Shown piece after piece: positions 24,741-48,093 of a DNA stretch of 64,000 bases (position 1 is its first letter; each line of letters begins with the position of its first letter). Origin of the DNA: Pseudogymnoascus verrucosus (Eukaryota); NCBI GenBank assembly GCA_001662655.1, contig KV460210.1. One strand, written 5' to 3'. The translations under genes and the position numbers were made by a program. Below the pieces are notes generated by a model, which saw only the letters and a list, made by a program, of their open reading frames with translations, did not search any database and was not told the origin of the DNA.

Positions 24741-25504
24741 ATGAAGCACATCATCTCCCTCGTGGCCCTCGTAGCCTCTGTTACGGCACATTCAACCTTT
24801 CAGGAATTATGGGTCGACGGAGTTGACCAAGAAGGAACGTGTATCCGCACGCCTCCAAGTAACAGCCCCGTTACGAGTGTTACCTCCAGCGACATCACTT
24901 GTAATGTTGGCGGTACGACAGGTGTTTCTGGTCTCTGTAGCGTTGCTGGTACGAGTTTATACATCCTATTCTGAACTATTAAACTGGAAACTAACAGCCT
25001 CCAGCTGGCCAGACCGTTACAGTAGAGATGCATGCTCAGCCTGGAGACCGATCATGCTCCACAGAGGCCATCGGCGGAAACCACTTTGGCCCCGTTATCG
25101 TCTACATGGGCAAGGTCACCGATGCAACAACGGCTGATGGCTCGGGTGCAATCTGGTTCAAAGTCGACCAAGAAGGCTACGACGTCCCGACCAAGACATG
25201 GGGAACCATGACACTCAACGACAATTGCGGCAAGCGCACCTTCACAGTCCCATCAAGCCTTGCCCCTGGTAATTATCTCTTGAGGGCTGAGGTCATTGCT
25301 CTGCACGCCGCTGGTTCATCAGGTGGCGCCCAGTTTTATATGTCCTGTTACCAGCTGGCGGTGACTGGCAGCGGGACAGCAAACCCGAGCGGAGTCAGCT
25401 TTCCTGGGGCATATAGCGCAAGTGACCCAGGAATCTTGATTGACATCTACCAGGATATTACTAGCTACACTATCCCAGGGCCAACTGATGTTTTCACGGG
25501 ATAG
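24741..25504 (+). CDS. AA9 lytic polysaccharide monooxygenase (no CBM)
   Basis: Signal peptide then His1 (VTA|HSTFQELW), CIRTPPSNSPV, NHFGP, YLLRAEVIALH, GAQFY; one intron about 24949-25004. Confidence 0.92.
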
Positions 25505-25673: not shown

Positions 25674-26798
25674 TTAAAAGTTGGCTTTCAGCACGGGTGA
25701 GGCCTTTGGAAACCTGCCCGGCTCCTTCCCTTGTAATAGCGGCCCTCCTATCTTTCCTGCGAACACCCCATTCATCCACGCGGTCGTATACGCCACCAAT
25801 ATCTGCCTCATCTCATCCGGTGCAATCGTACCTAGCACATCCGCCAATGCTGTCGGGTCCTGCCCAGCCGCCTGGAGCAGCGTCGGAACATCCGAGAAGG
25901 TCTGGTGCGTCGTGTTCGCGATGTCGACCCACAGCTTCGGCCCCTTCAGCAGCGGCCATGTCGCCGGCCAGCTTTCATCGGCCATCCCGTGGGACATGAG
26001 CAGCACTGGCTGAGACACTCCTGACGAGGGCGATTCGAGGAAGGTGCCATCCATATTGATCGCGCCACGAATGCGGGTGTCCTGGCTAGCGGCGATGACG
26101 GCAGCAACGCCGCCTAGAGAGTGCCCCAGCATGGCGACGCGGTCGGTTGGGAATGGTCGGGCCCCGCGCTGGGGGAGAAGTTTGGCTATGGCGGTCGCAT
26201 TGCTCAGCTGGTCGATAACAAAGGATGCGTCGGTGGAGCGAATGGGCAGGTGCTCCAGCATGGCCGATAAATCCTGTGTAGTGTCGTTGTTATAAACTGC
26301 GTGGCCATCAGGATAGGTAATGATGTCAGCGTCCCCGGGGTGGTCGATAGTGATGACTATGAAGCCCTCGCTGGCGATGGCAGAGGCAAGGACGTTATAA
26401 TAAAGGCGAGGGATGCTGTAACCAGGAGAGAAGAGCAGAACGGGGACATCATCTAGTGGTGAGCAGCCGGAAGGATAGTCCGAACACACTGGCAGGCGAG
26501 CCTCCAAGAAGAGGGGCGTGAGGTTTGTTGGTATATTGAAGATCTCTTGGAGAAAAGGCCCCTGATAATCGGCGGTTTTGTCAGGCATGTAGTGGACAGG
26601 CACAGTGGATGCACACGTTGCAGGTTGAAATACCGACAGCATCAATGCCCGAGGCGTTGGTTTTTCGGCGTAAGGATCATTGCGGCCGTAGTCGATGAGG
26701 GTCCCAGTCGTCAATGTGACATTGTGCTTACCAGGCGGGTTTGGGACCAGGTACCCAGAAGTCGTGTTGGCGAGCAAAAAGAGAAGAATCTTAAACAT
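25674..26798 (-). CDS. Secreted PAF-acetylhydrolase-like alpha/beta hydrolase
   Basis: Signal-like MFKILLFLLANTTSG; FSPGY, TIDHPGDA, GHSLGG nucleophile, INMDG, HQTFSD. Confidence 0.8.
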   Translation of the reverse strand: MFKILLFLLANTTSGYLVPNPPGKHNVTLTTGTLIDYGRNDPYAEKPTPRALMLSVFQPATCASTVPVHYMPDKTADYQGPFLQEIFNIPTNLTPLFLEARLPVCSDYPSGCSPLDDVPVLLFSPGYSIPRLYYNVLASAIASEGFIVITIDHPGDADIITYPDGHAVYNNDTTQDLSAMLEHLPIRSTDASFVIDQLSNATAIAKLLPQRGARPFPTDRVAMLGHSLGGVAAVIAASQDTRIRGAINMDGTFLESPSSGVSQPVLLMSHGMADESWPATWPLLKGPKLWVDIANTTHQTFSDVPTLLQAAGQDPTALADVLGTIAPDEMRQILVAYTTAWMNGVFAGKIGGPLLQGKEPGRFPKASPVLKANF

Positions 26799-28095
26799 AG
26801 ACTGCATATCTGCGAGTGTCGAGAAGACTGGGGCGTGTGAGGTAGGGGACGACTGGAGAAGGGGGTCCAAACAACTGACGAGCGTTGTTTCGAATTCAGG
26901 CAGAGAGAAGACGATGGCTATCAGGTGGTAAAAGGGGCAGTTATATACTGTGCAACCTTATTCTCTAAGGACTCAGTATATCCCAGGTGTTGGCCGTGAC
27001 GTGTAAAGTACGCCATCGCCGTGGAAACGCTAGGCATGGCTGTTGAGACCATCTCGGCCTTGGATGGTTTGGCAATGTCTGGCTCATCCGCATGCTGTAT
27101 TGAAAATAAAGTTCTACATGCTTGCTTACACTTTCTCTATACTCAAATGTTTCATGATTATAGCTTCCGCTGCTGCGCCCTATATCCGCGTAGGCAATTT
27201 CAAGGGATTCGAGGGGCGGGTTGGGTCACCGAGGCATCTTCATGCCGACTGACCGACATGAGAAACCTAGTCGAACGGCCTTAGTATCAATGCCGGGGAC
27301 CATCAGTACGTAGAGGGAATCAAATGGTCGGATATAAGGCCCGGCCAAGCAGAAAAGGGGACGCTCTTGACATCGAGAAACCAGTTGTATCTATCCATAG
27401 CGTCGTGCAGCCCGGCCAGTGCGGTTCGAGTAAGCGGTGTATCGTTTGACGCGCACTTTGCCGCGTAAGGGAACTCGGCCAGACTTACACTTCATAGGTT
27501 AGCAACTCGACTGCCGTGTATGACAGATAGTTGGGCTTGTCTAGAGAAGGTGTGTTCTATGTACGCGTCTCTCTCCTCCCCTGTAGCCAAGCCACCTTAC
27601 ACAGCCACTCGCTTGAGTCGCTCTCTCTCCAGCAACGACATACGGTAATTAATATTTATTCCGTGACTGGCAGGGTCTCTCTCTAAAAGACTGACTTGAT
27701 CACTCCCAATGCCGCCGAGGACCACATACCACCTCGTTCTTACGGCGACAATCTATGGCGAGATCCACAACGAAAACGGCGGCTTGAATACTAATGCCCG
27801 TGTCGCCAATGACGGCCGCGGATGTTGAACAATCGCCGTTTGTCCTAGATCTTTACTCGTGCTTTATGTGAACACATCCAGAGTATCCAAGATGGTTGCC
27901 CGCCTTCTCTCCCATATGTCCTCTCTTCCTTGGAAGGCGAGGAGAGAGTTCCCCAAAATGACTATTTGCTGACGCCTTTCCAAAGGCTGAAGTCTTTGTT
28001 GGTATACCTTACATAAAGGTTTCATTCATTCACTCAACTGCAGGCGCTGTGGCTTATCTCTGAATTTCATCTTGCAAATATCTATCTAAGACATC

Positions 28096-30042
28096 CTATC
28101 TCCCGGTGTTATCTCCGTATGCCAATTCCTGTTGCTTCAACTCCATTATCTGCTCGCCTTCCTTCTCAGCCTCTGTTTTAGTACTCTTGAATTTCCTTCC
28201 TGGGACTTTCTTCGCGAACAGCTCATCAAGCTCCTTGTATGTCCGTCCTGCCGTCTCAGGCTGATATACCCATAAATATACACATGACAGCAAAGCCAGC
28301 CCTCCGAAGATGAACGAAACCTTCGCTCCTAGGTTTGCTTGGTCCGGGTTGAAGAGCTTAGGGAGTACAAATGCCCACATGGTGTTTAGAGCGTTTTGCG
28401 TGAAGATGCCGATGGCGATGGTTTTGACGCGCAGACGGGACGTCGCCGTCTCAGTGAGGAGAGTATAGGAAACAGCGCCTATGGTTACGTTGTAGGACCA
28501 GCAGTAGATCAGGATGAGGGAGCAGGTGCCTAGAAGATGTCAGTGGACATTCGGAGAGGATATAAAATTAAATATGGATATGTACCTTTCAGGGCACCTG
28601 GAGTTCCAATGACAGCAAGTCCTCCAGTGAGAAGTAGGTCGACGGTTAGGAAGCAGAGACCATATAACATTAGTGGTCTACGACCAACGCGTTCCACAAG
28701 AAACCAGGACATGATATTCCCAATCATAGAGATAACTTGCTGTACAATCTGCAAAATATAACTTTCGCTGGTGGAGTATCCAGCAAGTTGGTAATAGTAG
28801 GTCGAGTAGCTTGCAGCGAAGTAAATACCCGAAAAGGTCTGGATGAGAAAGGGGGCGATAGCGATGCCTGTTCGTCGTAAGTTGGATTTTCGGAAGCACT
28901 CTAGGTAAGTGGCTCCATCGGTCTCGCTTTTGACTTCCTCAAGGGTCAAAATTATCTGCCCTATGCGCATTTTAATTTCGGATGGGGAGTACCCAAGCTT
29001 CTTAAGGGATTTGGCGGCTTTAGCTTCACGACCTTTGCTGAGAAGCCACCATGGGGACTGTATTAATGATTAGCATCGGTCACTCAAAAGACCTACTACT
29101 CACCTCTGGCATAAATGGGAGGAATATTGTTCCAATAGCTGCAACAGCATATTGTGCGACAAAGGTAGAGCGGTAGGCCCATCTGCTTTCTGCGATGCAC
29201 GTCAGAGTCTGAAGTCCAAAGTTCAATTAAATAGGCAGAAAAACTTACCGAGTGTGCCTGTCCCCTTGATGATGAGTGCAACAAGGAAAGGGCCGAGGGT
29301 GAAGGATACTGCAGCTGCACTGCTCACGATACCGCGAAGAACAGTTGGCGTAATCTCGCCAATGTAGGTGAAGGACACGGTAACCAAAGCGCCGATAGCA
29401 AAACCACTATCGAAGAGGTCATATTAGTAGAGTTTCTTAGATATCGTATAAGTCTAGACATACTTCATGAACTTTCCGGCGAAAAACATGGGAGATGTAG
29501 TTGCAACGAACTCGAGAGTGATGCCGACGTATGAAAATACAAGAGCAAGGGCATATGCCCATTTTCTCCCCACCTTATCTGCAAGATAGGCAATCCCGAG
29601 GGATCCAATACAAGCACTATAGATAATTAACCTCAGGAAACCTAGTTGAAGACAAAGGACTCACGATGCAACCGGGGCCCCACTAAAGGCCGCCTGCCAG
29701 TCAACGGGCAGGACATATGAATCCTTATATTTGTAACCAAAGTCCTAGACCGTAAGTTAGATGAGCGAGTTAACTTTATTACTGTGAACCAACCTTTCTG
29801 AACTCTGGAATGCCGAGCACCGCGCCACCTGCTTGGCCTTCAAAACTGTTCAAGATGAGCATCCAGATGGCGTAGATGCACCACAGCATGACCCAGGGAT
29901 TATCTCGAATTGCCTTCAATGGTGTGAGCTCATGCTCCCCTTGATTGGCGAGTCGACCAGTCTGTTCGACGCTCTCAATAAAGTCAACATCGGTCTTCTC
30001 ATTTTTGGGGTTCTCCATTTGTGTTGAATTTGTTTCGACCAT
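28096..30042 (-). CDS. MFS sugar transporter (maltose/alpha-glucoside permease-like), multi-exon
   Basis: GGAVLGIPEFRK.FG, PVDWQAAF, PESPWWL, NLRRT, VERVGRRPL, ETATSRLRVKT, FNPDQANLGAKV, PETAGRTY.ELDELF. Confidence 0.9.
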
Positions 30043-30814
30043 TAAGAGGTCGGACAGAAGAAGTGCCGGTGTTATAATTTATGCAATTGTTTGCTTATAG
30101 TTGCAAGAATCTGATAGATCTTATATATTTCTTCGGATGGGGTCCGAACACCACAGTCGGGATCTCAATAGGCGGAGAAAGAACGCGGGGACGATATTGG
30201 CGCTCTGCAATATGGGGAAGTGGCGGGGAAACTTTAATCGGCGGCCAAAGCCATTCAAGTCATCTGCAAGAGGCATCTGGAAGCGCTACTGTGGTTTGGC
30301 GTTTAGACCGAGACGCGAAGGCATGGTCGCTCTTTCCGTTGTAGATCAGGAAAGTGTGCTGCGAAAATTCATGCCCCTTGAATCCATGACCGTGGTAAAA
30401 GGGGTCATTGCAGAGAAGTGTGGGGTATCCCTTGGAGAAGAGGGGTAATTACTATGGGGCTGGAATGACACCAGCCGAAAATTGTTGTTCAGATGAGGCA
30501 GGTGGAGCCACCGCATTCTTTTCTCGGAGTCCGTTGGAGGCCTGGAACGTGGAAATAGGTAGATCGGCTAAGTAGCACCCATTCCAGGGATTGGTTCAAG
30601 CCGTTCTATTCTATGTTGTATTCCTACAGTGTAATTGCCAAGCCCCGAAACCCCGCAAACCCAATGCCCACGTTGACGGGCCCGCTAAATATCGAAGTGT
30701 GGGGTATAATCAAGTCAACGACGCTCAAGTTCAGTCAGATCGCATGCATCACAAGATTTGCTCATACTATGTTAACTTGTCAACATCGATATTGATGGAA
30801 CAAGTCTCATTAGA

Positions 30815-32343
30815 ATGGCAGGTCTAGAAGACTATGCGTTCGCATATAATGCTACATTAAACACTTCTCCAATGAACCTTTCCACATATGATGAATACTC
30901 GAACGACCCCAGGTTCATAGAGTCACAGAGACAGTTTCGAGCACTATTATTCGATACTGCTCATTCTACGGGCCCTACGAGAGTCGGCAGCCCAGTACCA
31001 GGAGATGGCAAAGATTCAGATTATCTTCACCCTTCGGACTCCAATGCGTCAACGACGGAATGTGGTTCATACATTGGGACGGTTGTGTCGACAGTTGAAC
31101 GCGTAATGTGGCTGAAGAATTACATCAACGAGGTAGCTCCGTGGCTCGACATGTTCGATGCACAGCAGGCCTTCGGGAGGAAAGTTCCTATGCTTGCAAA
31201 GACATCTGCTCCCTTAACGTACGCAATACTCGCCATCTCGGCACGTCAGATGGAACGGCAAAAAAAGCTACGGGGCGATCATAACAGCCTACAGCTTTAC
31301 CAAGAAGCAATCAGATCATTAACGCCACAGCTTCAAGCACGAGACCCAAACATTTTGGCTGCATGCGTGATACTCTGCTGTTTAGAGATGATGTCTGCTG
31401 CTCCAAAGAATTGGAGGAGGCATTTAGATGGATGTGCGGCTCTGTTTAAATCATATGGAATCCATGGATTTAGTACTGGAATCCCTCAGGCCGTGTTTTG
31501 GTGCTATGCAAGGATGGGTACGTTTTATAGAGACCTTTACAAGATAGCTTATTGAGCTGCACCCGTGTAGTCATGTGTCTGTAATTTAGATAGTTGATGT
31601 TTCTTTTTGGCTAACGCGATACACTAGATCTTTGTGCAGCCATCATTTCGGAAGGGGATCAGGGTTCAGTGCTAGATCTCCAGAATTGGCTCCCTGAAAA
31701 TGTTACGGCCTCCCAAGCAGGCGCCCTCTTTCGCTCTTCGGGAATCCCAGACATGTACGCAAACTATGCCGTATGGCTGTGCGCCCGAGCATGTCACTTG
31801 TCCTGGACTCGAACAAGAGCACATGAACCCAAAAATAGCGGGGTCAACACGGAGCCTTTCATTCACTCGTGGCACAATCTTTGGGTTGAAGTGCAGGGCT
31901 GGGCGCAAAAGAGACCGGCCGAAATGCGAGAGTTGGACTTCGCAGGTGGTGGCAGTCAATCTCAAAGCGGACCTTTTCCCTTCATTCTCTTTGCTGCTCC
32001 ATGTGCTATCTCTTCAAACCAACTATATCACACTTCATGTTTACTACTACTCGGTATGAAGCCATTGTCCGTCAACACGCGCGAGATGGGTCATGTTGGC
32101 TCGGCCTTGTGGCATGCCTATAGAATATGTGGTATCTCGATAACAAACTCTCATCACGGCTGCTTGAACAATGCAATCCAGCCTCTTTGGCTGGCGAGCA
32201 AGCTACTTAGCCATCCTGCCGAGCATAGATTGATTGTAGATCTCATCAAAAAGATTGAAACAGTAACTGGGTGGAGCGGAACCTGGAGGATCCGAGACCT
32301 GAGGGAGCTCTGGGGATATGACAAAGACGACCCATCATTTTAA
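30815..32343 (+). CDS. Fungal-specific transcription-factor-domain protein (Fungal_trans_2-like); no Zn2Cys6 motif found
   Basis: YINEVAPWLDMFD..FG..VP.LA, AILAISARQ, WRRHLDG, FWCYARM|DL, NQLYHT, HAYRICGIS, NAIQPLW; intron about 31518-31627. Confidence 0.8.
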
Positions 32344-32378
32344 ATTATGTCTATCTATATTCAAGGCAAAATAATACA

Positions 32379-34727
32379 TTAAAGCTCTATAAATTCGCTC
32401 TTGAGAGCCCGTTGTTGTTCAATAGCGTCTAGATGCGCCAAAATCTTACACGATATAACCTTACCGTCGAATCCGAAATATTTATAGGCGTCTTTTCCGG
32501 GTAAACTTTTCCCAAACGACTTCATCGAGATACTCGCGTCGGCATAACGCTCCCATCCGTTCGCAGCATACGCCTCAACAACCACGACTAGCGTTTCCAC
32601 CCGGCGCAACACGCTTCTTCTGTACTCGCGACTCTGCTCTTCGAATAACCTTTGGCATGGGAAGCTGATGATGCGGGCTTTAACACCATTTCTCTCCAGA
32701 TCCTCAGCAGCTTCGACAGCAAAGCACATTTCGGAGCCGACGCCGATGAGTGTTACTGCTGCATCTTCCTTCTCACGGAATACATAAGCACCATATCTGA
32801 CGGAATATCGATTGCTCTCCACATGCTGCGGTAGATTCTGTCTTGACGTAGAGATAATTGTCGATCTATGCTTAGACTTCAACGCCACAGTCATCGCGCC
32901 AGCAACCTCTTCTGAATCACATGGTCGAATGTATAGGAGATTAGGCATAGCACGGTACAAGGCTGCCAACTCAATGGGCTGGTGAGTAGGTCCGTCTTCT
33001 CCTGTGCCGATGCTGTCGTGGGTTGCTATATGGATGACCTGGAGCTCCTGGAGAGCCCCCATGCGGACTCCAGGCGCGGCGTACTGGAACCACAGTTAAC
33101 TTCGGGAAGCGTCATGAAGTTAATGATAACGTACCAAATAGAACATGAAGAAGCTGGATGTGACGGGTATGATAGTCCCACGGTTGAAGGCAGCAAGTCC
33201 ATTTGCTATAGAAGCCATAGCATGCTCTCTGATACCATAATGTATATAGCGCCCACTGTAGTTGCCATTAATACCACATACGGTTTTAAGGGTGGGCTGC
33301 AGCATAATTAGTCCTCTAGCCCTAGATATATAAGCTGTTGGTGGCACTTACACTTTGAAAGTCCACCTTTCCAGGCCAACTCATATGGACACTTGGTGAT
33401 AGATCTGCAGTGCCTACCATAAAATTCGGAATTGTTTTTGCCAGCGGATTGCAAACAAGGCCTGCAGATTTGCGGCTTGCTGTTGGTGATGTGGGGAACG
33501 ACTTTGGAATAACATTCTCCCAGTTGCTCGGCAGCTCCCCTTTAATTCTTTGCCGCAACTCATCGCCCAACTCTGAGTGGGCTTTGCAGTATGAATCCAG
33601 CAAAACCTCCCATTGGTCCACTGAATCAGCCCGGGAACGGAGGTCCTTTCTAAAGAAGTCATACACTTTGTCCGGAACGTTAAACCGCTCCTCTGGGTCG
33701 AAGCCGAATTTCTGATGAATATTCTTCACGTCTTCTTCACCAAACGCAGCACCATGAGCCTTGGCGTCTCCTGCAACCGCACTTCCAATACCAATCACAG
33801 TGTGGCAGTTGATGAAAGTCGGTTTCTCGCTGCTGTCTCGTGCGGCGGCTAAAGCGTTCGTGATACTTTGCACATCGTTCGACCCGTCTAGAACCTCAAT
33901 AACATTCCACCCGCTCGCCGCCATCTTCGCATTGATATCTTCTGTATTTGCAACATCTGCACTTCCATCACAAGTGACGTTGTTATTGTCAAATATTAAA
34001 ACAAGGTTGTTCAGTTTCCAGTGTCCGGCTAGAGAAATGGCTTCTAGCCCAACACCCTCTTGGAGGCATGCGTCGCCAGTCATACACCAGGTTGTATTGT
34101 TAATAATGTCGAAGCCAGGTCTGTTGTAAGTTGCTGCCAAGTGCTTCGTCGCCATGGCCATTCCAACCGCATTGGCAATTCCTTGGCCAAGAGGACCGGT
34201 CGTGACTTCTATCCCAGTATGCTCTCTCTCCGGATGCCCTGGACAAAATGAGTCTGGGGACGGGGAGTGGTAGGTTTTAAGTTGATCCAAGGTCATATGC
34301 TTGTACCCTAATAAATGAAGAAATGAATATTGAAACAAACACGTATGCCCTTTTAAATTGTTAGATACATTATGATGTTATGCTTGGGGGGGGTCGGGAT
34401 CACTCAACCATTTGATAAGATGAATCTATCGCGATTAAACCACTCCGGGTGATCAGGAGAATATTTCATAGTGTACCGCCAAAGGGCGACACCAATTGCT
34501 GCCATGCCCATCGCACCTCTAATCCTGTTAATAATTGAAAACATCTCAAAAACCTTGTAAGTTGAGGCATACCCTGGATGACCGCCATTGAAATGCTGCA
34601 CGAGGTCTGCTATTAGAACCCGAAACGTCCGCAACACCAAATCATGATCTTCGTGGTCGACAAGACTTAGGTTATGAGACTTTGACTTCACGGTGTCAAA
34701 GTCAACCAGTGTTACGGATGGCGCCAT
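32379..34727 (-). CDS. Transketolase, dihydroxyacetone-synthase-like type, multi-exon
   Basis: GGHPG, NRDRFILSNGH, PGHPE, TTGPLGQG, ThDP motif GDACLQEG..DNN, YGIREHAM, HDSIGTGEDGPTHQP, SRQNL. Confidence 0.92.
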
Positions 34728-35372
34728 TGTTGGAATCGGAGGTGTTTGTACGGGAAATGGATAAACACAACACTCTTAAGAATCGATGTTTAGGTGGCGG
34801 TTATTATAATTGACAGAGCGCGCAGGAAATCTAAAAGGAAGCTGAGATACTATTGCTGCAATATTTGGCAGATCTTGGTCTACCTTTTTTTAAAAAAAAA
34901 CTGAGAATCGAGGAATTATAGCTTTCAGCTCGGAGTTAGAAACGTTAGTGCAAAACTTATTGGAACTCTCATTACATGATGGTAAAACAACTGTAGAGTT
35001 GCTCTTAGTTCCACTTGGTATTCTTCGGTGCTTCCAACTTCCAATTGCGGATGCGGGGTCTGTGTTCCCACTTTCTCAATTGCGGGTCACGTAGCAATCA
35101 ATTTTCCCCCAAGAAGATCTGGTCCAGACTTATGGTCATCTGCACGCCTCCCGTACTCAGAGCATTTTTGATGCTGTACATGTTAGTATTGATCCTTGGC
35201 GCATACATCGGGTGCCTTACAAATTGTCGTTGTAAGACGAAGCTTTCACATGTTTGCGATCCAACTGTTTCTTTACAGGACAGGTATATTAAGTCACAAG
35301 TTTACAGAATTACCATTTGTAATTTGCAATTTTGATAATTAGTACTAAGTTTGAAGCCTCTAAGAGCATTGC

Positions 35373-36571
35373 TCAGTCAAAAATACGTATTGGTTTCTCA
35401 AGATAGAAGCCAGGATCGTTGAATCTGAGGCCCTTGTCAAGATCTGAAATTTCAGCCAGCTCCTCCTCTGTCATCGAAAAGTCATTCACCTCCAAATTCT
35501 GCTGTAGACGTGCCTTGTTATTTGATTTTGGAATAACGGCAATGCCCCTATAGTTGTTAGTACCGCGATAATCTATACACACCTTGCCAATTTCACGTAC
35601 CTTTGAGTAGCCCAGCGTAAGAGAACTTGCCCGGCTGGCCTTCCATGCTTCTCGGAGATCCTTTGAATGACAGGGTTGTCGAATAGCATCGGTACACCTT
35701 CAGCTCTCTTGCTGAATGCCCGAGGAAGTTCAATAAACGACTGTGGACCAAATGTTGAGTATCCCGTAATGGCAATTCCTTCTTCTTGTGCCATTTTGAC
35801 CAACGTGTCCTGTACGAGGTATGGATGGTGTTCAATTTGTAGGCTGGAGATTGGGTGTCGACAATATGAGAGCACATCATAAAGTAATTGCGTCGAGAAG
35901 TTGCTGACACCAATCGAGCGCGCCACGCCCTCGTCGACAAGCTCTTCTAGAGCTTGCCACGTCTCCGATATGGGGACTTTGTCAGTTTCAACAATCTTGC
36001 GATCTTTATCCATCCACCAAGCCTATATACTACTTAGCATCGTGGTACATGCAGGAATGAATGTAATCCGTACCGGATAGCGCAGCGTCTCAGGCTCAAT
36101 ATACTTCAGTGCGACTGGGAAATGAATAAGATAAAGATCAATGTAATCCAATCCCCAGGCGTCTCGTTGTGCGTATGCCATCTGTTTGACGTGTTCTCTG
36201 CACGATCTTTAGTCTCAGACCTGAAGAAGGCTTTTGTACTCCTTACTTTCGGTGATAATTGTTCCACAACTTCGTTGTCACAAATATGTCTTCCCTCTTT
36301 ACGATTCCATCCTCAACTGCTTTCTTGATGCCGAGGCCGGCTTCCTTTTCATTTTGATAATCGTAGGCCCCATCGAACAGCCTGTATCCAGTCTTGATTG
36401 CGTGGTAGACTGTGTCTGCCGTAGTATTTTGGTCAACTTTCCACAGGCCGAAGCCGACAAGTGGCATACTCTGGAATACTTGTCAGCTTACGAAACGATT
36501 GCTGCCATATTATTGGCAATGTCAGGTATGGGGTGGCTTACATGACCTGATGCAAGCTTCACTGTAGCCAT
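35373..36571 (-). CDS. Aldo-keto reductase, D-xylose/aldose reductase-like
   Basis: [64 protein letters not shown]. Confidence 0.9.
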
Positions 36572-36945
36572 TTTTAAATGATAATTATGAGATACGCGGG
36601 TCGTTGTGTTTCTACAGATTCGTATCTCACTCGGTTTGTTTTACTGTAGATTACGGGTCGACTCTTTTATAAAGGTATTGGAGAAAACAAGTCTCTCAAA
36701 AAGTATGAATTAGTGCTTCCCAGCAATCGATGGATAGGCAGTTCTCAAGTCCCGCTTGGGGTGGGGTAGTTCTCCAACGGCGCTTCTAGTTTCCTAAATA
36801 GGAATCTTATGGTGCGTTAACTGCGGGGATCCGGAACTACCTGTCTCTCAGAAGAAGTAAGCTTTGGTAACACCTATCTATATAGGATTATTTCTTGTAT
36901 TTTTTGTTCCTAGAAGTTTCCTACCTCATAATATTTGGGAATATC

Positions 36946-38292
36946 ATGTCGCCTTCGTTAATTGACGCTGTTGAGGAAACACGACAGGAGCTGGGAGCTC
37001 AAGATGTCGCCCCTGTCAAGCAAAATGGATTCAGTCCATCCCAATTTAAAAACCCAAGCCTTCAAGTCACAGCTGATCACAAAGTAAAAATGGTGGATGC
37101 GCCAATTCGAAAGCCTGGCAGCGGGGAGGTTTTACTTCATATCAAAGCGACAGGAATCTGCGGGTAAGTCTCAGGCCTCAGGGTTCTTCTCAGCAACACT
37201 GACCGAAGTAAAGATCTGATATCCATTTCTGGAAGCGAGGCAGGATTGGGTCGCTCACTGTTGAAGGCGATTGTATTCTTGGCCATGAAGCTGCAGGGGT
37301 TATTTTAGAGATCGGGGAGGGGGTATCGGGTCTACAAAAGGGAGACCGCGTCGCGTTGGAACCACAGATCCCCTGCGGAACGTGCTTTTCGTGTACAACA
37401 GGACGTTCCAACCTATGTCCCGATGTTCAATTTATCGGTGTTTATCCACACCATGGTTCACTGCAAAGATTCGTTGTCCACCCTGCTAAATGGGTTCATA
37501 AGTATACATCTCCCAACTCCCCTCAAGGCTGGCGGTGCTGACAACATCCAGACTTCCAGAAAATGTATCATACGCACAGGGTGCCCTTCTTGAACCCCTC
37601 TCCGTAGTCATGCACAGTCTCTCTCGTACTCGCCTATCACTCGGTCGCGGAGCCGTGATTTGCGGTGCAGGACCAATTGGGCTCATTGCTCTTGCAGCAG
37701 CACGAGCGTCCGGAGCCCATCCGCTTGTAATCACTGACTTGGAGCCGAAACGCCTGGCCTTTGCGAAAGACTTTGTGCCGTCTTGCCAGACATATCAAGT
37801 CGATCCTACGCTAAATCCAGAAGGGAATGCAAAAGCGATACGAGCTTTATTCGGCAGTACAGAGTACGAAGCGCCAGAGACCATCTTAGAATGCACGGGC
37901 GTTGAATCAAGTGTTATCACGGCTTCTTTTACAGTCCGGAGAGGAGGAGACCTAGTGGTTATTGGTGTTGGAAAGGACATCATGAACAACCTGCCATTTA
38001 TGCATATAAGCTTATCGGAGGTAAGTTCATTTGCTCCGCATGAGAATCATCCACCTGGATGTATATGTGCTTACAAATTTTGACACAGATTAACTTGAAA
38101 TTTATCAATCGATACTGTGATACCTGGCCAGCAGGTATATCAGCATTGAGTGGGGGCGTACTCAATCTTGACAAGTTAATTACGCACACCTTCCCGCTGG
38201 AACAAGCTTTGGACGCGATGGAATTATGTTCTAATGTTGCGTTGGGGAGTATAAAAATCCAAGTCGTGGATGATCGGGACATCGAGCCCTGA
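36946..38292 (+). CDS. Zn-dependent polyol dehydrogenase (L-arabinitol 4-dehydrogenase/sorbitol DH-like)
   Basis: NPSLQVTADH, TGICGSDIHFW, GHEAAG, structural Zn CGTCFSC..GRSNLC, LLEPLSV, GAGPIG, ECTGVESS, FINRY. Confidence 0.9.
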
Positions 38293-38464
38293 GGTAAGAG
38301 GGATGTGTGATAGATGTGTTGTAGTACAACCTAAGAAACTATAAACACATTTCAACTTCCAACTGTACGCGCTTCAGCAAAGTTGATTATCTCGTTGAAT
38401 TACGGTACAGTAGCTTAGTATAGCAATATATATAGTTATGGACTGTAAGTTCAAGCTAACTAGA

Positions 38465-39970
38465 TTAAACCTCTGCGACTTCCCAGTCAACCTGTAATTT
38501 CTCTGAACCAGATGAATCATCTGCTACTTCAACCAATACCCTCCTATAGGCCCTCATTGGAAACTTGGCATTATCAATGACTTCCAAGATTAAATGGTAG
38601 GTTTTTGGTCCCCATTTCATTACTTTTTCCGGATCTAACGGGAAAATCATCCCTTCGTCCTTTCCGGGGATCTCCACCGAGACCTTTTCGAATTTTCTCT
38701 TCCCGTCAGACTCATCTTTGAAGGTCAGCTCCGGTACCTCGAATTTGACTGTCCACTGCGTAGCAGAGGGCTCTCTATAGTGTAACCACCGAAATTGCAG
38801 GCTGTCAGCGGAGTCTGGATCCCAGCTCTGGGAGGCGTCAAGGTGTACTGTTGTTCCAAACCCTGTCTTGATGCGCAAAGCGCCCAACTCTGAATCGCCG
38901 TTAACTACTAGTATAGGTGAGTGGTTGACGTTATTGAAGTCGTTGCTCAGCGTCCACTGCATACGTGCGGCGAAATCCCCCTGGTATGCGTCTCTCCAAC
39001 GCCAGATTGTGGCTTGGCTTCCAACATGCATATTGCCGTCTTTTCCACGAACGTAGTCCGCAGCATCGCTATAGTGTCTGCTACCGTCTTTACCAGTAAG
39101 ATCCGTAAGGTTATAACGTCCTCCCCACCCACCCCATCCAGGGTGGCAAGGATCCGTGAGTCCATTCTGAATGAGGCTGAGAAACGTTGGCGTATCGCCT
39201 TCTGGAATGAATACTGGATCCGGATAGGCTGCTTTGCCATATGGCCCGATTTGGATATATTTCTTGAGCCATTCGTTGGTCACAAGACTGGAGTCAGGGC
39301 CGCCCTGGTTGAAATGGTAATATGACTCTCCCGATATCCCCGTCCAAGCAGCAAGTCCGTATGCATTCCAGCCGTGAATAGAGGCAATATAGAAGATTTT
39401 GGGAAAATTCAGTCTTATCCAAGTCCCAGAGTCGTCTTGATCTGATATGGCATACACTCGAAGCTTAGCAGCAAATGTGGCTACTTCAGTTTCAGACCGA
39501 GACTTCTGCACTTGGAGGAGAGCTTGCGCAAGTACATTGGCGCCGCCCCAGATCAAAACCCATATGTGACCGTCAGAGGCAATTGCGTCCACGGCTGCAA
39601 TAAGTAGCTCGGAGCCTTCATTCAATGGGCCCCGTGCCCCTGTCATCCCGTACTCAGCGATGCCATCGCGGACGACCTGACGTAGAACCTCTGCCGTTGG
39701 ATATTGACGGCTCGGAGGAACATGCGCGTTCAAATTCGCCTGGACCTCGGCATATGCATCGAGGATTTGGTGGATCTGCTGCTTGTGCGTTGACGTCTGC
39801 TGCCAGAAGGAAGTTGTTGCAACCAACCCGTCGATTTGGAACTCATTTGCATATAGTAGAAAGCGAGTGAGCGACTCCGCATCATCGGGTTCGTTGCAGA
39901 TGTCTGTGAGAACGACAATGTGCGGCTTTGTTTTAAAATTCGGAAGGCTCTCGAAAGTATGAAGAGCCAT
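38465..39970 (-). CDS. DUF1593 (Sde182-like) protein with nucleoside-hydrolase-like domain; cytosolic
   Basis: Intronless 501 aa, no signal peptide. LTDICNEPDDAES..R.LLYAN, WGGANVLAQAL, YAISDQDD, EGDTPTFL, WGGWGGRY, WRWR..YQ.DFAARMQW, LDASQSWDPD. Confidence 0.85.
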   Translation of the reverse strand: MALHTFESLPNFKTKPHIVVLTDICNEPDDAESLTRFLLYANEFQIDGLVATTSFWQQTSTHKQQIHQILDAYAEVQANLNAHVPPSRQYPTAEVLRQVVRDGIAEYGMTGARGPLNEGSELLIAAVDAIASDGHIWVLIWGGANVLAQALLQVQKSRSETEVATFAAKLRVYAISDQDDSGTWIRLNFPKIFYIASIHGWNAYGLAAWTGISGESYYHFNQGGPDSSLVTNEWLKKYIQIGPYGKAAYPDPVFIPEGDTPTFLSLIQNGLTDPCHPGWGGWGGRYNLTDLTGKDGSRHYSDAADYVRGKDGNMHVGSQATIWRWRDAYQGDFAARMQWTLSNDFNNVNHSPILVVNGDSELGALRIKTGFGTTVHLDASQSWDPDSADSLQFRWLHYREPSATQWTVKFEVPELTFKDESDGKRKFEKVSVEIPGKDEGMIFPLDPEKVMKWGPKTYHLILEVIDNAKFPMRAYRRVLVEVADDSSGSEKLQVDWEVAEV

Positions 39971-40767
39971 GATTGTAGTTTATGAGGGTGGGACGGAGTA
40001 ATTTGGAAATAAAAATTGTTTGTAGATAACTGTTTAAAAATCTTCGAGGTATCCCTTAAGTTGTAATTGCTCGCATTAGATGGATCTTATGCTGAAGGAT
40101 AAATAACGGTTTCCACAGCGGTGCTGATATGACGCTTTCTGGAAACGTCAAGTGTACTTTGGAAGCGCAACAGAACCGCATCAAGCCATACTGTAGAAAA
40201 ATGTAACTTGGAGCGTATGTCCCATTTAGGAAGCCAGAGCCACAAAGTTATCAGCTAGAATCCCAAACTCACGGCTCTACTTCGGCCGGTTACTACGTAG
40301 TGGGTGGACTCATTATGGAAACTGGAGACACCTTTTTCCGGAAGTGTTTATAGTTGCCTAATGGAGGATCTTCGGTCAATATTGACAGACCTCATCTGGT
40401 CCGCATTTCCCAACTTTCCAAAGAACATCGCAACGGCACTAGACAACGGCATCACAGCAGTAAGAGCTGTAAGAGCTCGATTTATATCTGTATTAATTGT
40501 CTGTTCTCTTGTATGAAATGATGGACTTATCACGTGATATATAATTGTCTTGGTCCACTATTGGTGCCCCAGACTAGTTGAATGCCATGAAGCTATGCCG
40601 TATTTTACCTCCGACTTCAAGTTCATTCCCATAATCGCAGCATCCATAAATCAACTCTGCTCACGTGTCTATGTATGGTCCTTGTTGTGGAGCAAACGAC
40701 ACTTTGTCGTGCTATCGTATTTGCGCCCGTTATCTAATTATCCTCGGGCTCGGGATGTCGATTCGCG

Positions 40768-43078
40768 ATGCCACATCCTGACCATTCGACAAGCCCGGCG
40801 CAAACTAGAACCCGACAGGGTTGTTTGACCTGCAGGAAACGACGAAGGAAATGTTAGTCTTGCATGTTAGCCTCTGATATATCTTAGTGAAAACCTGGAG
40901 CCTTCTCCTTGGTAGAGACCACCGCACGTTGCCTCGGAAGCTAATTTATAACAGGTGACGAACAAAAACCTCGGTGTCAGAACTGCACGGGACGAAGCAT
41001 CGTTTGTCGTTATGGAGTGAAACTCACGTTCCTTGCTACCAATCGGTTCAATCTTGTGCCAGAGGATGCACAGGCATTGCGGGAGACTACTCCCAGCAAA
41101 TATGGGCATATCAGGGTCAGAATAATTCCCCATACATTGAGAATATTCTGACAGTTTTTGAAGTTCATTGATGGCTTGGATGATACTGAAGGGGCCATAA
41201 GCGATGATCATGAACGGCATAACGCTGTGCCATCATTTGAGATATCTCCACATTCGCTGCCAGGGACTCCAGATACTGAACACAGTCGAACGGCCCAAAG
41301 AGTCCCTGAGAGCACTGTGAGCGTCCTAAGACAACCACAAAGTCGGTTCCCGGAGCATTATTACCATGGTGAAGACAGCGGAATTGGTGAGTCCCAAGGT
41401 ATGGGAGAAGGCAGCAATGACGACGAACGACACCACCAAGCCCCAGTGGTGTATCCACCAGTTATAGATCAAAGTCACTCCTATGAAATGCCAACGGGAG
41501 ATGCAGAGGATAATGTCCAACTCGCAGATGAGGCCGATTATGATCGACTCGTTTCGGAGCCACTGCCATCACGACGCCCGCTGCCTGTTGCTTCTCTAAG
41601 TCCTCGCCATAGCACAAATGCGGGTTACGGTAAGAGCTGGCTACCACCACTACGGACGGTGTCAGAAACCTTCGAATCGGCCACGCTGAGAGAGGAACCT
41701 TCCCAGCTGCAGGTCCTTTCTAACGACAAGCGCAACCAATTACTTAAATTCTATGTAGACGAAGTAGCGCAATGGGTCAGTTTCTCCAGAGAGGTTGCAC
41801 CCTCTTTTCCACCGCTTTCAGGAGCTGAATTGTGAGACAGCTAGATATATGCACCCCTAAAAGTTCCTTTGGGATTCACATTCCAATTCTGGCAAGAGAC
41901 TACACACCTCTCCTTAATTCAGTTTTAGCACTGGCGGCCCAGCAGCAGTCGCTCTTTTTGCCACCGGACAGTGATGAGGCTTCCCAGAGCGCTGAATTAG
42001 CAACACTGGCTACCGCATCGATCGGATTGGACATATATAGTAGTCGAGATGAGGCTGTGGCTACATGTACACTTCTGATGATAAGCGAGCTCCTGTCAAC
42101 CCAGATTCAAAACTGGAAACGCGTGCTGAAAGGTCGAATCGACTTTCTTGGGCCACTAGGTATTGATGGATTCTCTGATGGTCACCACAGCTCCACTTCA
42201 TGGGTGACATTAAGACTCGGTATGTATATTCACGATCCCAACCATCTTTACGCTCCTAACAACTATGACACCTCCCCTTTGCTACTTTCATACATACATG
42301 TTTTACCATGTTGTGAAAGCGTGATAGAAGATATGGCTAACCGTTCATAGATCTTGCACTTGCCATATTCTCCGGATCACCACTCATGACACCCATCGAG
42401 AAGTGGCACCCGGTATCAATGCCATTTTCGGATGACATGAATATAATGTCCCTGGAACAAAGCAGAGCCCCTGAGTGGACTCGACGATCGATTCTGCTGT
42501 GCAGCCAGGCTGCACAGCTTTGCTTCTCGACTGAGATCTCTAATATCACAACTTCTCACTCAGCCACGGATACTTGGACATATCTCTGGAGCTCCACGCG
42601 AGGATGGCTTGAGAGTCTTCCATCCTCGATGTATCCCATTTTCACGTCTCCCATATCAGCCATCCCCTCAACACCTCCCTACTTCTTCCCGCTTATTCTC
42701 TACACCAGTCGCTCTAACATGTACGCCGCCATCATGCATCACACAGCTTCTGTATTGCTATTGCAAAGCAAGCCACCTACCGTCCGCCCGTCTTCGCATC
42801 TGAAAACTCCGACCTGGCACGCTGTGCAGATTTGTGGGATATGCATTGGGAATAATGCGCAGTGGTCTTATGATCCCACGATTCTAGCAGCGCTGATATA
42901 TGCGGGGCGATTGATCAGCTACCAGGAGCAGAAGAAAGAGCTGCTGGACGTCTTGCGGGTCTTGGTTAAAGGAAGTGGATGGCAAGTGGGCGGTGCTATC
43001 GACGAGATGATTGAATGGTGGCGAGTGGATGGAGGATTTCACGTCACTCCTCTTGAATCACCCTTCCCTACGACCTGA
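40768..43078 (+). CDS. Zn(II)2Cys6 transcription factor with Fungal_trans_2-like C-terminal domain
   Basis: Spliced N-terminus reads RTRQGCLTCRKRRRKC|DEQKPRCQNC....IVC (intron about 40853-40954), followed by YVDEVAQW|LDIC..FG..IP.LA, MHHTA and WHAVQICGI. Confidence 0.85.
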
Positions 43079-44949: not shown

Positions 44950-47900
44950 TCAACGACTATACTCCCTATACTCCCCCACCAACGACTCAATCCCCCCCGG
45001 ATACTGATCCATCGAATCCATCGCCATATAATCCAACAAATCCACTCCCCCCAAATTAACCCCCTCGCTCGTCTGCGTAATACTCGTATCCGCATTCGCA
45101 TTATGAAAGAACGCCGCGCCGGGTGGTAAATACCACATCTCCCCCGCATTCCCCCAATCGCTCCCCCCAAACGCCGGACCTCCCTCCGAGACAGCGGGCG
45201 CGCCAAAAGGGTTCTGCGCGTTGCCGTCCGTGGAGCCGTAGGGCGCGTTGCCGTAGAAGGCGTTGTTTCCCAGATCGAAGGCGGTGGCGGAGATGTTGAT
45301 GTCTGGGGGGGTGGGGGTTAGTTGGTATTTGATAGAGGGCTCGTTAGGGGGTTGCATACCATTGCCTCCGTCGGAGAAGGCAGGCATGCCGGGGCCGTTC
45401 CAATGTCCGTTATCGTCGCCGTTGTGTGGGCCTCCCGCGATGGCTTGTTGGGAGTCGCTGGCGCCTGCTTCGGAAGAGACGGGGGCGTGCATGAAGCGGT
45501 TGCGTAGGCGTGTGGTGAGTGTGTGCAGGAGGTCGGCGAATCGGGTCCCGAGATGCACGTCGTCGACTACGCAGTCGCGGAGGGCTTCGACGGCGCGGTC
45601 CATGAGTCCGATGCTGACTTCGACGTCATTCTTGGAGGCGCCGAGGGCGAAGGTCTTGAGGAGGAACATGGCGCCGGAGATGATGCGGAAGTAGGTGCGG
45701 ACGGGGGCGTGCTTGAGGAAGCCGTTGGGGAGGAGGCCTTCGACTACTGTGCGGAGGAGGTTGCGGGAGCCGTCGACTACTTCACGGACGTATTCCTGGT
45801 CGCGGGTTGTGAAGCCGCCGTAGAGGGTTAGTGGGATTTGGTTGAGGAAGTTGGGGTGGCGGTTTTCGGTTGTTGCGGCGTTGTTGGTGCAGCGTTCGAC
45901 GACGGCTTGGAGGGAAAGTGAGTTGATGTATATCCGAACATATTCGTACTCGATGGTCAAGATGTGACGAATGTACTGCGGCAGGGGATAGCTGACAAAG
46001 GTCCGTTTCCAGGTGGCCAAGATTGGCTGGAACTCGGCCAAGAGATCGAGATACTTGCCAGTCTGGATGATATCAGTGGTGTACTTGCGCGAGCGGAAGA
46101 TCTTGTCATTGCCCGCCCCCATAGCTGTCGTAATTCCCGCCCAACAGTGGATGATCTGATCGTCGAGCTCCAAGTCGGGAATGTAGTTGAATGAAGCCAG
46201 TATAGACGCGTTTGTGTTCGGTGTATTTCCATCCGCAGAAGACGTCCGCTGCTTGCGCATTTCATCATACGCTCTCAGGTTCTCAGGCACCATATTGGTC
46301 CATCCAAGTCGCCCCGCAAGTTGGGTCACGTAAATCAGCAGCAGCTTTTTGATGCGCGCAGCACGGTGGCGGTATGCTTCGTCGTCATATTCGGGACGAG
46401 CCATATCGCCGCCTACTTCCAGCAGCTGGTCGATCTGGTCGAAGACGCCGAGTTCGTAGGAAAGGCCCATAGCGGTACTCAGAAGCATCCAGCACATGCG
46501 GTCAGATCTCCATGCCGGCTCCAGCCAGCTCTCAATTCGCTTACCACCGACCCCGTTCAGAGCGCGCTGGTTTCCATCTTCATCCGTGGAGAAGTTGTCG
46601 GGACCCTCGTATAGAGGAAGCATAAGCTCGTCGGTAGCGTCTTGTGGAGGGAAATGGAGACCGCGAGGATGCCACTCGGTGAGAATCATCAGCGACTCAA
46701 TCGTGCCAAGGGTCCGAAGGGAGCCCTTCCGCATCCCACGCCATGGCGCAGTGCTTGAAGTCTGCTCCCAATCAGTGGCGCCTGATCCGCAGAAACCCCC
46801 ACCAAACGATTCTTGGCCCCAGAGGCAGCGCTCGATCATACCGCGAAGGTAGGTCCACAACTGTTCGTGGATTGCGTGAGACCGACACTGGCCGCCGGTT
46901 CCTGGGATTTGCAGATACCGAGATGCAATAGTCAGCAGCGTGACCGTCAGGATGGGTTCTTCCTGGAGTAAAGTGACGTGCGTCGAGGGGTTTTGGAAGG
47001 TGGGAGGCGAGATTGGTGTCATTGGCGACAGGTACCGATAGTAGCTGCAAAGGTCAGCATACGCTTCTTCAGTCAGTAGAGACAGTCAGCGACTTACTAT
47101 TCGATATACGCAATAGCTTCAGCAGGAGTGAACCACCCAGCGCGGACAAAGCGGAATCTGGCCCAGGCTCTAACTGCTGTCTTGTATCCAGGGTCGTTCA
47201 TGCGGTTTATAGTATCGTTATCGACCGGCATCGAGCCCCTCGTGTCCCTCGTCTCGTTGTGTGCCTGCGATGGAGGCGCCATGGGTCGTGGGTTGTTTGC
47301 CTGGGTGAACCTCGGAGTACTGAATGGTTGTGACTGTTGGAATCCTTGATTGTCGCGGGCAGAAGAGCCATCAGCGCCGCCGGAGTTGAGCAGTTTCATG
47401 CGCTTCGTCGGGGAACTGCATCTTGCATTAGCACAACCATCATATGAGAGACACCACACAAACATACCCATCGGTCGCGGCCTGGTACAGTAGATCCAGA
47501 GCATCATGCGGTCCATAAATCCCCTTCCTCATCGTAGATTGCGCCTCGGGGTTCTCATAGCGCACATTCGAGTCGCCGAATTGGCGCGACCCCGCCCTGC
47601 GATGCTCGCGCCCCGGCTGCGAATCAAAGCGATTGATACTCTCAGTTGGCGACGTAGCAACATTAGGCGGTTGGATCGGCGTATGTCTGTACGCAGGGTT
47701 TAGCGGCCTCGACCCGGTCGACGACTCCGGGCGCACCTCTGGCGGCTCCGAGCCACTATCGCTCGTATACTGCCTCTTGCGCGCGTTGCGGTCAACGAAG
47801 TCCGGGTCGTAGATGGGAATGTCATTCTCGTCGAGCCTCTGCTTGCGCCGGGTCACGGAGAAGTAGCAGTCCTTTGACTCGCGACGGCAGCGGACGCATG

Positions 47901-48093
47901 GCGGGGCATTGGGGTTGTCGACGGAGCCCAGGTCGCACTTGACTTTGCGCTTGCGACAAGGGATGCAGGCCTGGTAGACACGCTTGTGCTGGGTGGTGGG
48001 TTGGGGAGAGCCTTCTTTTTTCGCATTGGCGCCGCCACTGGTGGAATTACCGTTTCCGGAGGACTGCTGGGAAACCTGGTGTGTTGTTGCCAT
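44950..48093 (-). CDS. Zn(II)2Cys6 transcription factor, Aro80-like
   Basis: [19 protein letters not shown]...[56 protein letters not shown]. Confidence 0.85.

Follow-up and report, generated by a model that had tools for sequence, protein, structure and literature searches.

Apiose links two of the side chains of rhamnogalacturonan II (RG-II) to the pectin backbone, and it decorates many plant glycosides. In bacteria that degrade it by way of a transketolase (TK), apulose is phosphorylated before the TK cleaves it. Bacterial routes for D-apiose were reportedly described by Carter et al. in 2018. The subject here is a group of seven genes (positions 28096-43078) in a 64,000-nucleotide stretch of the genome of the soil fungus Pseudogymnoascus verrucosus, a Leotiomycete (contig KV460210.1 of assembly GCA_001662655.1); the whole stretch is called the window below. 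We propose, at a probability of roughly 45%, that this cluster serves the co-regulated catabolism of plant apiosides or D-apiose, as a eukaryotic, oxidoreductive version of the bacterial TK route.

The bacterial route employs the isomerase ApsI, the kinase AplK and the split transketolase AptA/AptB (PMC13753588, PMC13001218), and it is the one transketolase route that PMC13753588 describes for D-apiose. As presented there, the route is marked by a dedicated TK encoded within a sugar cluster (PMC13753588). The cluster of Escherichia coli SE15 is the reference D-apiose cluster of the authors of PMC13001218, according to whom E. coli and E. fergusonii strains bearing the cluster grew on apiose; they propose that the two oxidoreductases of the E. 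coli cluster replace the isomerase. The SE15 genes (ECSF_RS02670-02715) encode two short-chain dehydrogenases/reductases (SDRs), a permease, an ATPase, a DUF2291 protein, a solute-binding protein (SBP), an FGGY kinase, a regulator, AptA and AptB. The apiosyl linkages of RG-II are freed, according to a preprint, by BT1012, a GH140 beta-D-apiosidase of Bacteroides thetaiotaomicron. Among fungi, Fusarium oxysporum depleted D-apiose; as far as the available text of that preprint goes, its proteome contained no known bacterial apiose enzyme, and the authors suggest alternative pathways (bioRxiv 10.64898/2026.03.13.711244). No fungal route of apiose breakdown was found in the literature searched.

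Two further systems resemble parts of the cluster. The fungal pentose pathway comprises xylose reductase (XR), L-arabinitol 4-dehydrogenase (LAD), L-xylulose reductase (LXR), xylitol dehydrogenase (XDH) and xylulokinase, and it uses an aldo-keto reductase (AKR) of the XR type followed by a dehydrogenase of the LAD/sorbitol dehydrogenase (SDH) type, as is found in the window. A reductase/dehydrogenase pair is the fungal way of isomerizing aldoses. Unlike the genes of the pentose pathway, those in the window share a cluster with genes for a transporter, two regulators, a TK and a DUF1593 protein, and LXR, XDH and the kinase are missing from the cluster. The other system is the dihydroxyacetone synthase (DHAS, EC 2.2.1.3) of methylotrophic yeasts, together with DHAS-like enzymes of filamentous fungi such as A. 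niger TktC (PMC6231085), which by the names of its homologues belong to the same TK subfamily as the window enzyme. For the Aspergillus DHAS-like TKs, the assignment to EC 2.2.1.3 comes from similarity alone (PMC6231085).

The cluster and its proposed pathway

Stop-to-stop open reading frames (ORFs) and Pfam matches place seven adjacent genes between 28096 and 43078. An earlier note on this DNA had described seven contiguous genes here, and its coordinates, order and strands are borne out. From left to right, the genes encode a major facilitator superfamily (MFS) sugar porter, a presumed regulator (TF1), a DHAS-like TK, an XR-type AKR, a zinc polyol dehydrogenase (DH), a DUF1593 protein and a second regulator (TF2). 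The AKR and DH genes form one divergent pair, and the DUF1593 and TF2 genes form another.

Exon models for the TK, AKR and DH genes were built by hand by joining ORF pieces over GT..AG introns, the DUF1593 gene being a single exon. Spliced contigs of a public sequencing run (X1) leave out nine stretches whose splice ends fit the strand of the gene. Seven of the nine coincide with modeled introns: one of four in the TK gene (33084-33134), all four in the AKR gene and two of three in the DH gene. The remaining two lie in the MFS gene (29744-29792) and the TF2 gene (41776-41840). The splicing of these contigs shows that the genes are transcribed in a close relative, in one sample or more; the depth of the contigs cannot rank the genes, and no claim of co-expression is drawn from them.

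In the proposed pathway, the MFS porter would import an apiose-containing glycoside or apiose, and the cytosolic DUF1593 protein, with its nucleoside-hydrolase (NH) fold and conserved acidic metal site, would release furanose D-apiose. The XR-type AKR would reduce apiose to apiitol, and the LAD-type DH would oxidize apiitol at C2 to give apulose, these two steps jointly replacing the bacterial isomerase ApsI. With apulose as donor of a C1-C2 ketol unit and glyceraldehyde-3-P as acceptor, the DHAS-like TK would form xylulose-5-P and dihydroxyacetone, and the latter would be phosphorylated by a housekeeping dihydroxyacetone kinase encoded elsewhere. TF2 (a Zn2Cys6 protein) and TF1 would control the divergent promoters. 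Every substrate and reaction in this scheme is predicted. The apiose reading is favored because DUF1593 is linked to apiose operons in bacteria, because PMC13753588 describes a single TK route for this sugar, and because the fungus combines DUF1593 with a TK and a reductase/dehydrogenase set.

Both the bacterial TK route and the proposed fungal pathway convert an aldose to a 2-ketose and then use a dedicated thiamine-dependent ketol transfer. The SDR pair that is the proposed isomerase substitute in E. coli resembles the AKR and DH of the window, although the window pair consists of an AKR and a medium-chain dehydrogenase/reductase (MDR) rather than SDRs. The bacterial route has an FGGY kinase and the window has none; transport is by an ABC system with an SBP in bacteria and by an MFS porter in the window; and the bacterial DUF1593 proteins inspected carry a signal peptide whereas the window protein is cytosolic. 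The bacterial route yields dihydroxyacetone phosphate, while the product here would be free dihydroxyacetone. The kind of pathway is already known in bacteria and the reductase/dehydrogenase logic in fungi, and what would be new is the combination of genes, the kinase-free TK step and the role of DUF1593. That the cluster is self-contained and needs no kinase is something we infer. The most specific version of the pathway, a kinase-free eukaryotic route with DUF1593 as a calcium-dependent beta-apiofuranosidase and a DHAS-type TK cleaving free apulose, is doubtful.

The DUF1593 protein and its bacterial loci

The DUF1593 gene (38465-39970, minus strand, in an ORF spanning 38465-39979) encodes 501 aa with an Sde182_NH-like domain (E 1.3e-102) followed by Sde0182_C (E 1.8e-19), a C-terminal beta-sandwich domain. 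Both models are matched over their full length (PF07632 at positions 2-268 of 268, PF21027 at positions 1-83 of 83). The same two domains make up the C-terminal region of Sde_0182 from Saccharophagus degradans (PDB 2YHG, E 3e-66), the founding structure of the two families; the fungal protein differs from Sde_0182 in having neither carbohydrate-binding modules nor a signal peptide. Its N-terminus reads MALHTFESL..., with the conserved TD..NEPDD motif encountered at residue 21, and inspection of this N-terminus revealed no signal peptide, so that the protein is read as cytosolic; the bacterial relatives inspected have hydrophobic leaders or a signal peptide. Residues D23, E27, D29, D30, D177, D179, E257, D259, D305 and H350 are each retained by 95% or more of the 180 members compared, fungal and bacterial, as expected of a catalytic metal site. 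According to a review, the NH-like domain of Sde_0182 has retained a Ca2+ site, shows no activity on nucleosides and probably binds furanose or ribofuranose (PMC8910321). More than 7,900 relatives of the window protein appeared in the first similarity search, and the literature searched yielded no mention of DUF1593. DUF1593 and the GH140 enzyme BT1012 share neither fold nor family; DUF1593 would add a second type, outside GH140, to the apioside hydrolases.

The genomic context of DUF1593 in bacteria argues for apiose. The neighborhoods of 156 bacterial loci, chosen by the similarity of their DUF1593 protein to that of the window (40-45% identity), were analyzed by ORF clustering and then Pfam, with counts obtained by tblastn using the E. 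coli SE15 proteins as queries; 76 loci are metagenomic (L005-L080) and 80 come from species genomes (L083-L162), and some are duplicates. A split TK like AptA (45-51% identity to SE15 AptA) lies 1.2-9.1 kb from DUF1593 in 10 of the 156 loci (L031, L033, L072, L098, L111, L123, L125, L129, L136 and L142). Seven of these loci are in named genomes (Bryobacterales, Vicinamibacteria, Novosphingobium, Niabella, Bacteroidales, Bacteroidia and Opitutaceae), which span Acidobacteriota, Alphaproteobacteria, Bacteroidota and Verrucomicrobiota. AptB-like genes are found in 9 loci, AplK-like genes in 8, GH140-like genes in 5 and PL10 pectate lyases in 17, and a fucose-isomerase-like gene is present in 8, accompanied by AptA in 7 of them. 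DUF1593 is thus tied to apiose and pectin use in bacteria, and the one operon-level catabolic partner found for it is the apiose TK route.

In three loci (L031, L033 and L072), an isomerase gene is the only gene that separates DUF1593 from AptA. Locus L072 reads, in order, TonB receptors, GntR, a GH140 'Apiosidase' (PF13204), DUF1593, a xylose-isomerase-like TIM barrel, TK-N, TK-C, an FGGY kinase, a sugar-binding regulator, an SBP, DUF2291, and an ABC ATPase and permease. Without the GH140, DUF1593 and isomerase genes, this is the gene set of the SE15 cluster. The best SE15 match of the L072 TK-N protein is AptA (276 bits, versus 124-130 bits for ordinary transketolases). The kinase scores 463 bits against AplK and 447 bits against a second FGGY kinase of SE15, and is GlpK-like by NCBIfam; with so small a difference, the kinase is not diagnostic of the apiose route and the TK is. 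NCBIfam gave no apiose-specific names. In L031, a 480-aa protein with an L-fucose-isomerase C-terminal domain (11447-12886) takes the position that the TIM barrel has in L072, separating DUF1593 from the split TK; the same protein type occurs in L033, L080, L098, L123, L129, L136 and L142 and is probably an alternative apiose isomerase.

The association is confined to part of the family. A FastTree phylogeny of 180 DUF1593 proteins resolves three bacterial clades: the alphaproteobacterial clade A (20 loci, with split TK in 1 and neither PL10 nor GH140), clade B (63 loci, with split TK in 9, PL10 in 17 and GH140 in 5) and the mostly acidobacterial clade C (72 loci, with none of the three). Any of these signals is found in 26 of 83 loci of clades A and B versus 0 of 72 in clade C (Fisher p 1.6e-8), and the split TK in 10 of 83 versus 0 of 72 (Fisher p 0.0018), both p values being inflated by relatedness. 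The fungal proteins form one clade (support 100) that is sister to clade A (support 91). The 11 of 20 clade-A loci that were scanned contain TonB receptors, carboxylesterases, a second DUF1593, GH106 and GH78 rhamnosidases, GH3, GH88 and sulfatases, and at two loci an ABC binding protein is 44-46% identical to that of SE15.

Two minor features of the bacterial loci may be recorded here. A second, longer DUF1593 paralogue (538-570 aa) is encoded at L111:12757-14466, L005:3727-5340 and L094:3692-5380; in these alphaproteobacterial loci a few kb separate it from the first copy, and genes for a TonB receptor and a carboxylesterase occupy the interval or flank the pair. At L022:9099-10193, a zinc MDR dehydrogenase gene immediately follows DUF1593 and precedes a sugar ABC transporter; its product shares 26% identity with the window DH across 376 aa and may represent a bacterial oxidoreductive or oxidative variant.

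Linkage in other fungi

The same grouping recurs in other fungal genomes, arguing that it reflects more than chance, and the conserved linkage by which the earlier note had proposed to judge the cluster was largely found. In another Leotiomycete (L001 and L002, which are 99.96% identical and are counted as one organism), six of the seven genes occur together, reordered and without the TK gene. DUF1593 (plus), DH (minus) and AKR (plus) have the order and relative orientation of the window and are followed by TF1, a TF2 relative and the MFS gene; identities to the window in L001 are 81% for DUF1593, 80% for an MFS exon, 72-76% for TF1 and 54% for the TF2 relative. In L003 (68% identity), DUF1593 and DH lie tail to tail just before the contig ends. 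Pseudogymnoascus sp. VKM F-4518 carries DUF1593 (V500_08724), AKR (V500_08726) and TK (V500_08727) on one 55-kb contig. In the Nectriaceae, DUF1593 and AKR have adjacent locus tags in both Stylonectria norvegica (g5448 and g5449) and Cosmosporella (018610 and 018620). Lipomyces doorenjongii has DUF1593 and an XR-type AKR on a common 49.7-kb contig. Logan contigs of 12,829 bp are the source of both P0012, a relative of DUF1593, and P0131, a TK of the cluster type; from the equal size they are taken to be a single contig.

The transketolase

The TK gene (32379-34727, minus strand; 709 aa in 5 exons) lies in an ORF region (32379-34775) with matches to Transketolase_N, Transket_pyr and Transketolase_C_1 (E 1.5e-102, 8e-24 and 5e-35). 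The model is 100% identical over 709 aa to VE01_01829 of P. verrucosus, and among solved structures yeast TKL1 is the closest match (E 7e-88 for a single exon). Among the matches listed, orthologues at 77-99% identity are restricted to Leotiomycetes; the set comprises six Pseudogymnoascus, Cadophora sp. DSE1049, Hyaloscypha variabilis, Amylocarpus and one Logan contig. The other listed matches reach 64-68% identity, many bearing the name dihydroxyacetone synthase in their source. With bacterial split TKs, the protein shares approximately 33% identity over roughly 200 aa, and it is a single fused chain.

P. verrucosus has a second DHAS-like TK, VE01_01891, which is 66% identical to the cluster TK and belongs to a widely conserved clade. 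Both VE01_01829 and VE01_01891 come from an 822,975-bp contig, taken as one and the same, with locus-tag numbers 62 apart. In a quick maximum-likelihood tree of 41 proteins, rooted on three yeasts and built without a characterized DAS sequence, the cluster-type TKs form a Leotiomycete clade of their own (support 100). Since this clade is not nested among the Leotiomycete DHAS-like genes, the cluster TK is taken to be an old paralogue; a recent origin within the Leotiomycetes was considered and rejected because the cluster TK falls outside those genes in this quick tree.

DHAS and the cluster TK as read here both handle dihydroxyacetone, an unphosphorylated three-carbon ketose. Unlike DHAS, the cluster TK lies in a sugar cluster rather than a methanol regulon, belongs to a separate old clade, and has a branched ketose as its proposed donor.

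The reductase and the dehydrogenase

The AKR gene (35373-36571, minus strand; 324 aa in 5 exons) has an Aldo_ket_red match on 35373-36022 (E 2e-21). Among solved structures, its largest exon matches yeast xylose reductases best (E 6e-35 to 3.5e-31), and D-xylose reductase is the source name of many homologues. A separate clade of AKR paralogues linked to DUF1593 was sought in an AKR tree, which contained no such clade. In this tree, the AKRs of Fusarium group as sister to the ones that adjoin DUF1593 in Stylonectria and Cosmosporella.

The DH gene (36946-38292, plus strand; 392 aa in 4 exons) encodes an MDR zinc polyol dehydrogenase of the LAD/SDH type, with ADH_N and ADH_zinc_N matches on 37212-38083 (E 3e-22 and 2.5e-13). 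Its best solved relative is N. crassa LAD (3M6I, E 1.5e-35), followed by sorbitol dehydrogenases. The identity to N. crassa LAD is approximately 49% over 152 residues, as counted by eye from the alignment, whereas LAD orthologues across the Pezizomycotina generally share approximately 70% identity or more. Judged by this difference, the DH looks like a divergent LAD paralogue, which argues against its being an ordinary LAD. Since the TK, for its part, is an old paralogue of the common DHAS-like gene, neither of these two genes looks like a housekeeping gene of the pentose pathway. An XR-type AKR and a LAD/XDH-type dehydrogenase of the fungal pentose pathway are thus present, at the family level only.

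Weighing the alternatives

The earlier note had suggested apiose as the substrate, and the bacterial DUF1593 loci with apiose TK genes, GH140 and pectate lyases lend weight to that idea. Several observations count against the apiose reading. The cluster TK, a 709-aa chain whose closest relatives are fungal DHAS-like proteins, is not of the AptA/AptB type, so that the parallel with the bacterial enzyme appears to be functional and not orthologous. To our knowledge, cleavage of free, unphosphorylated apulose has no precedent. No sugar kinase, FGGY or dihydroxyacetone kinase domain was found among the ORFs of the 64-kb window, where the scan outside 28-43.1 kb covered stop-to-stop ORFs of at least 110 aa. 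The linkage of the TK is also inconstant: none is present in the 21-kb stretch of L001/L002, which extends 10 kb to each side of DUF1593; Amylocarpus has DUF1593 and AKR on a common 129-kb contig and the TK on another; the sole DHAS-like TK of Cosmosporella among the listed matches is far from the DUF1593-AKR pair, by tag and by contig; Stylonectria has no TK among the matches listed; and DUF1593 and a TK-like gene are on separate contigs in Phialocephala. The best AKR and DUF1593 are themselves on separate contigs in Bisporella sp. PMI_857 and Coleophoma crateriformis. The stable core is therefore DUF1593-AKR(-DH); the TK is an addition seen in Leotiomycetes, and it does not always adjoin the core. 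On the bacterial side, the split TK occurs in only 10 of the 156 loci and most loci lack apiose genes, and the 72 loci of clade C have no sugar context whatever, so that the DUF1593 family need not share one substrate; clade A, the sister group of the fungal proteins, has the split TK in only 1 of 20 loci. Finally, the AKR tree mostly mirrors taxonomy, and no second XR-like protein of Pseudogymnoascus occurs among the best 120 of 1703 matches, which suggests that the AKR may be the general, ordinary xylose reductase of the fungus.

This last point leads to an alternative in which the cluster is an accessory to the ordinary L-arabinose/D-xylose pathway: the AKR would be a xylose/arabinose reductase, the DH an arabinitol/xylitol dehydrogenase and DUF1593 a pentofuranosidase of the cytosol that cleaves arabino- or xylo-oligosaccharides after their import, while the TK would boost pentose-phosphate flux. 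The XR relatives and source names of the AKR, its behavior as a single orthogroup, and N. crassa LAD as the best solved relative of the DH are all as this alternative predicts, and bacterial pectin loci with DUF1593 are also rich in arabinose. However, the LXR, XDH and xylulokinase that it needs were not found in the cluster or among the scanned ORFs of the window, the DH is just 49% or so identical to N. crassa LAD, and L-xylulose has the wrong configuration at C3/C4 for a TK donor. It also leaves both the dedicated old TK paralogue and the link between DUF1593 and apiose operons unexplained, and we regard it as unlikely.

The same hydrolase-reductase-dehydrogenase-TK logic could instead serve another rare furanose, tetrose or polyol, candidates being a riboside, a different sugar of RG-II such as aceric acid, and erythrose or erythritol, whose route would pass through L-erythrulose, a good TK donor. 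XR-type AKRs and LAD/SDH-type dehydrogenases are promiscuous, and the earlier note had allowed for a substrate of this kind. Many bacterial DUF1593 loci carry GH106, GH78, GH3, sulfatases and esterases, and the furanose- or ribofuranose-binding ascribed to the NH-like module of Sde_0182, inactive on nucleosides, would suit such a substrate (PMC8910321). Against this, no erythritol or ribose operon was seen at the DUF1593 loci examined (11 of 20 clade-A loci and 23 representatives of recurrent neighbor families), and the apiose-type operon is the one catabolic operon that was seen in direct connection with DUF1593; we consider another sugar an unlikely substrate. A true formaldehyde-removing dihydroxyacetone synthase beside unrelated sugar genes, or seven genes that do not form one pathway, is very unlikely. 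The names of the closest homologues (64-68% identity), the similarity-based EC 2.2.1.3 of the Aspergillus enzymes (PMC6231085) and the position of the TK as the least constantly linked member are what such an explanation can draw on. However, no methanol or formaldehyde genes were found near the cluster among the scanned window ORFs; in Pseudogymnoascus the TK gene is flanked by those for AKR and TF1 (AKR and TK being tagged 08726 and 08727 in F-4518); and a DUF1593 relative and a cluster-type TK apparently share the 12,829-bp Logan contig, judging by equal size only. The modeled C-terminus of the TK, ...EFIEL, is also presumably unlike the tripeptide peroxisome signal of yeast DAS.

If the apiose reading is correct, the cluster offers four testable enzymes and would be the first eukaryotic apiose pathway, and PF07632, a widespread orphan family, would gain its first function. 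It would also suggest that the puzzling DHAS-like TKs of non-methylotrophic filamentous fungi use branched or free ketoses rather than formaldehyde. Practical uses could include the release or removal of apiose from flavor and drug glycosides and the breakdown of pectin-rich waste.

Transporter, regulators and flanking genes

The MFS gene (28096-30042, minus strand) has several introns, and its start and stop were located. Sugar_tr is matched on two exons, including 28096-29069 (E 9e-13 and 3.7e-25). An Atlas look-up with an MFS exon returned generic sugar-transporter clusters only. Its 'SPWWLL' motif may mark disaccharide (maltose-type) porters. One X1 contig skips 193 nt at 29059-29253, with GT..AG ends on the plus strand, inside this minus-strand gene; the skip is weakly supported (30 letters on the shorter side) and may be an antisense transcript or an artifact.

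TF1 (30815-32343, plus strand) has a Fungal_trans_2 match (PF11951) on 30776-31555 (E 2e-16), and the C-x2-C-x6-C (Zn2Cys6) motif was not found in any of its frames; it is presumed from its domain to be a regulator or co-regulator. TF2 (40768-43078, plus strand) matches Fungal_trans_2 on 41829-42350, weakly and below the Pfam cut-off (E 0.0013). A regular expression for Zn2Cys6 matched nothing in single ORFs, the TF2 motif being interrupted by a 102-nt intron (40853-40954); it is whole once the intron is removed. With this restored motif and the weak PF11951 match to its middle domain, TF2 has the features of a Zn2Cys6 factor.

The genes that flank the cluster are unrelated to it: an alpha/beta-hydrolase and two AA9 genes upstream, and a Zn_clus factor, a cyclophilin and others downstream. 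The alpha/beta-hydrolase gene (25677-26957, minus strand; PAF-AH_p_II and PETase-like matches) adjoins the MFS gene. Alphaproteobacterial DUF1593 genes are often adjoined by a carboxylesterase (L111, L005, L094 and L085), but of another family (COesterase). The fungal hydrolase might be an eighth member of the cluster that acts on acylated glycosides. The two AA9 lytic polysaccharide monooxygenase genes (21425-21964 and 24775-25501, both on the plus strand) lie just upstream, arguing that the wider region is rich in plant-biomass genes. Right after TF2, at 44953-48204 on the minus strand, a long ORF (711 aa, without a Pfam match) and then an exon with Zn_clus probably encode a third fungal transcription factor.

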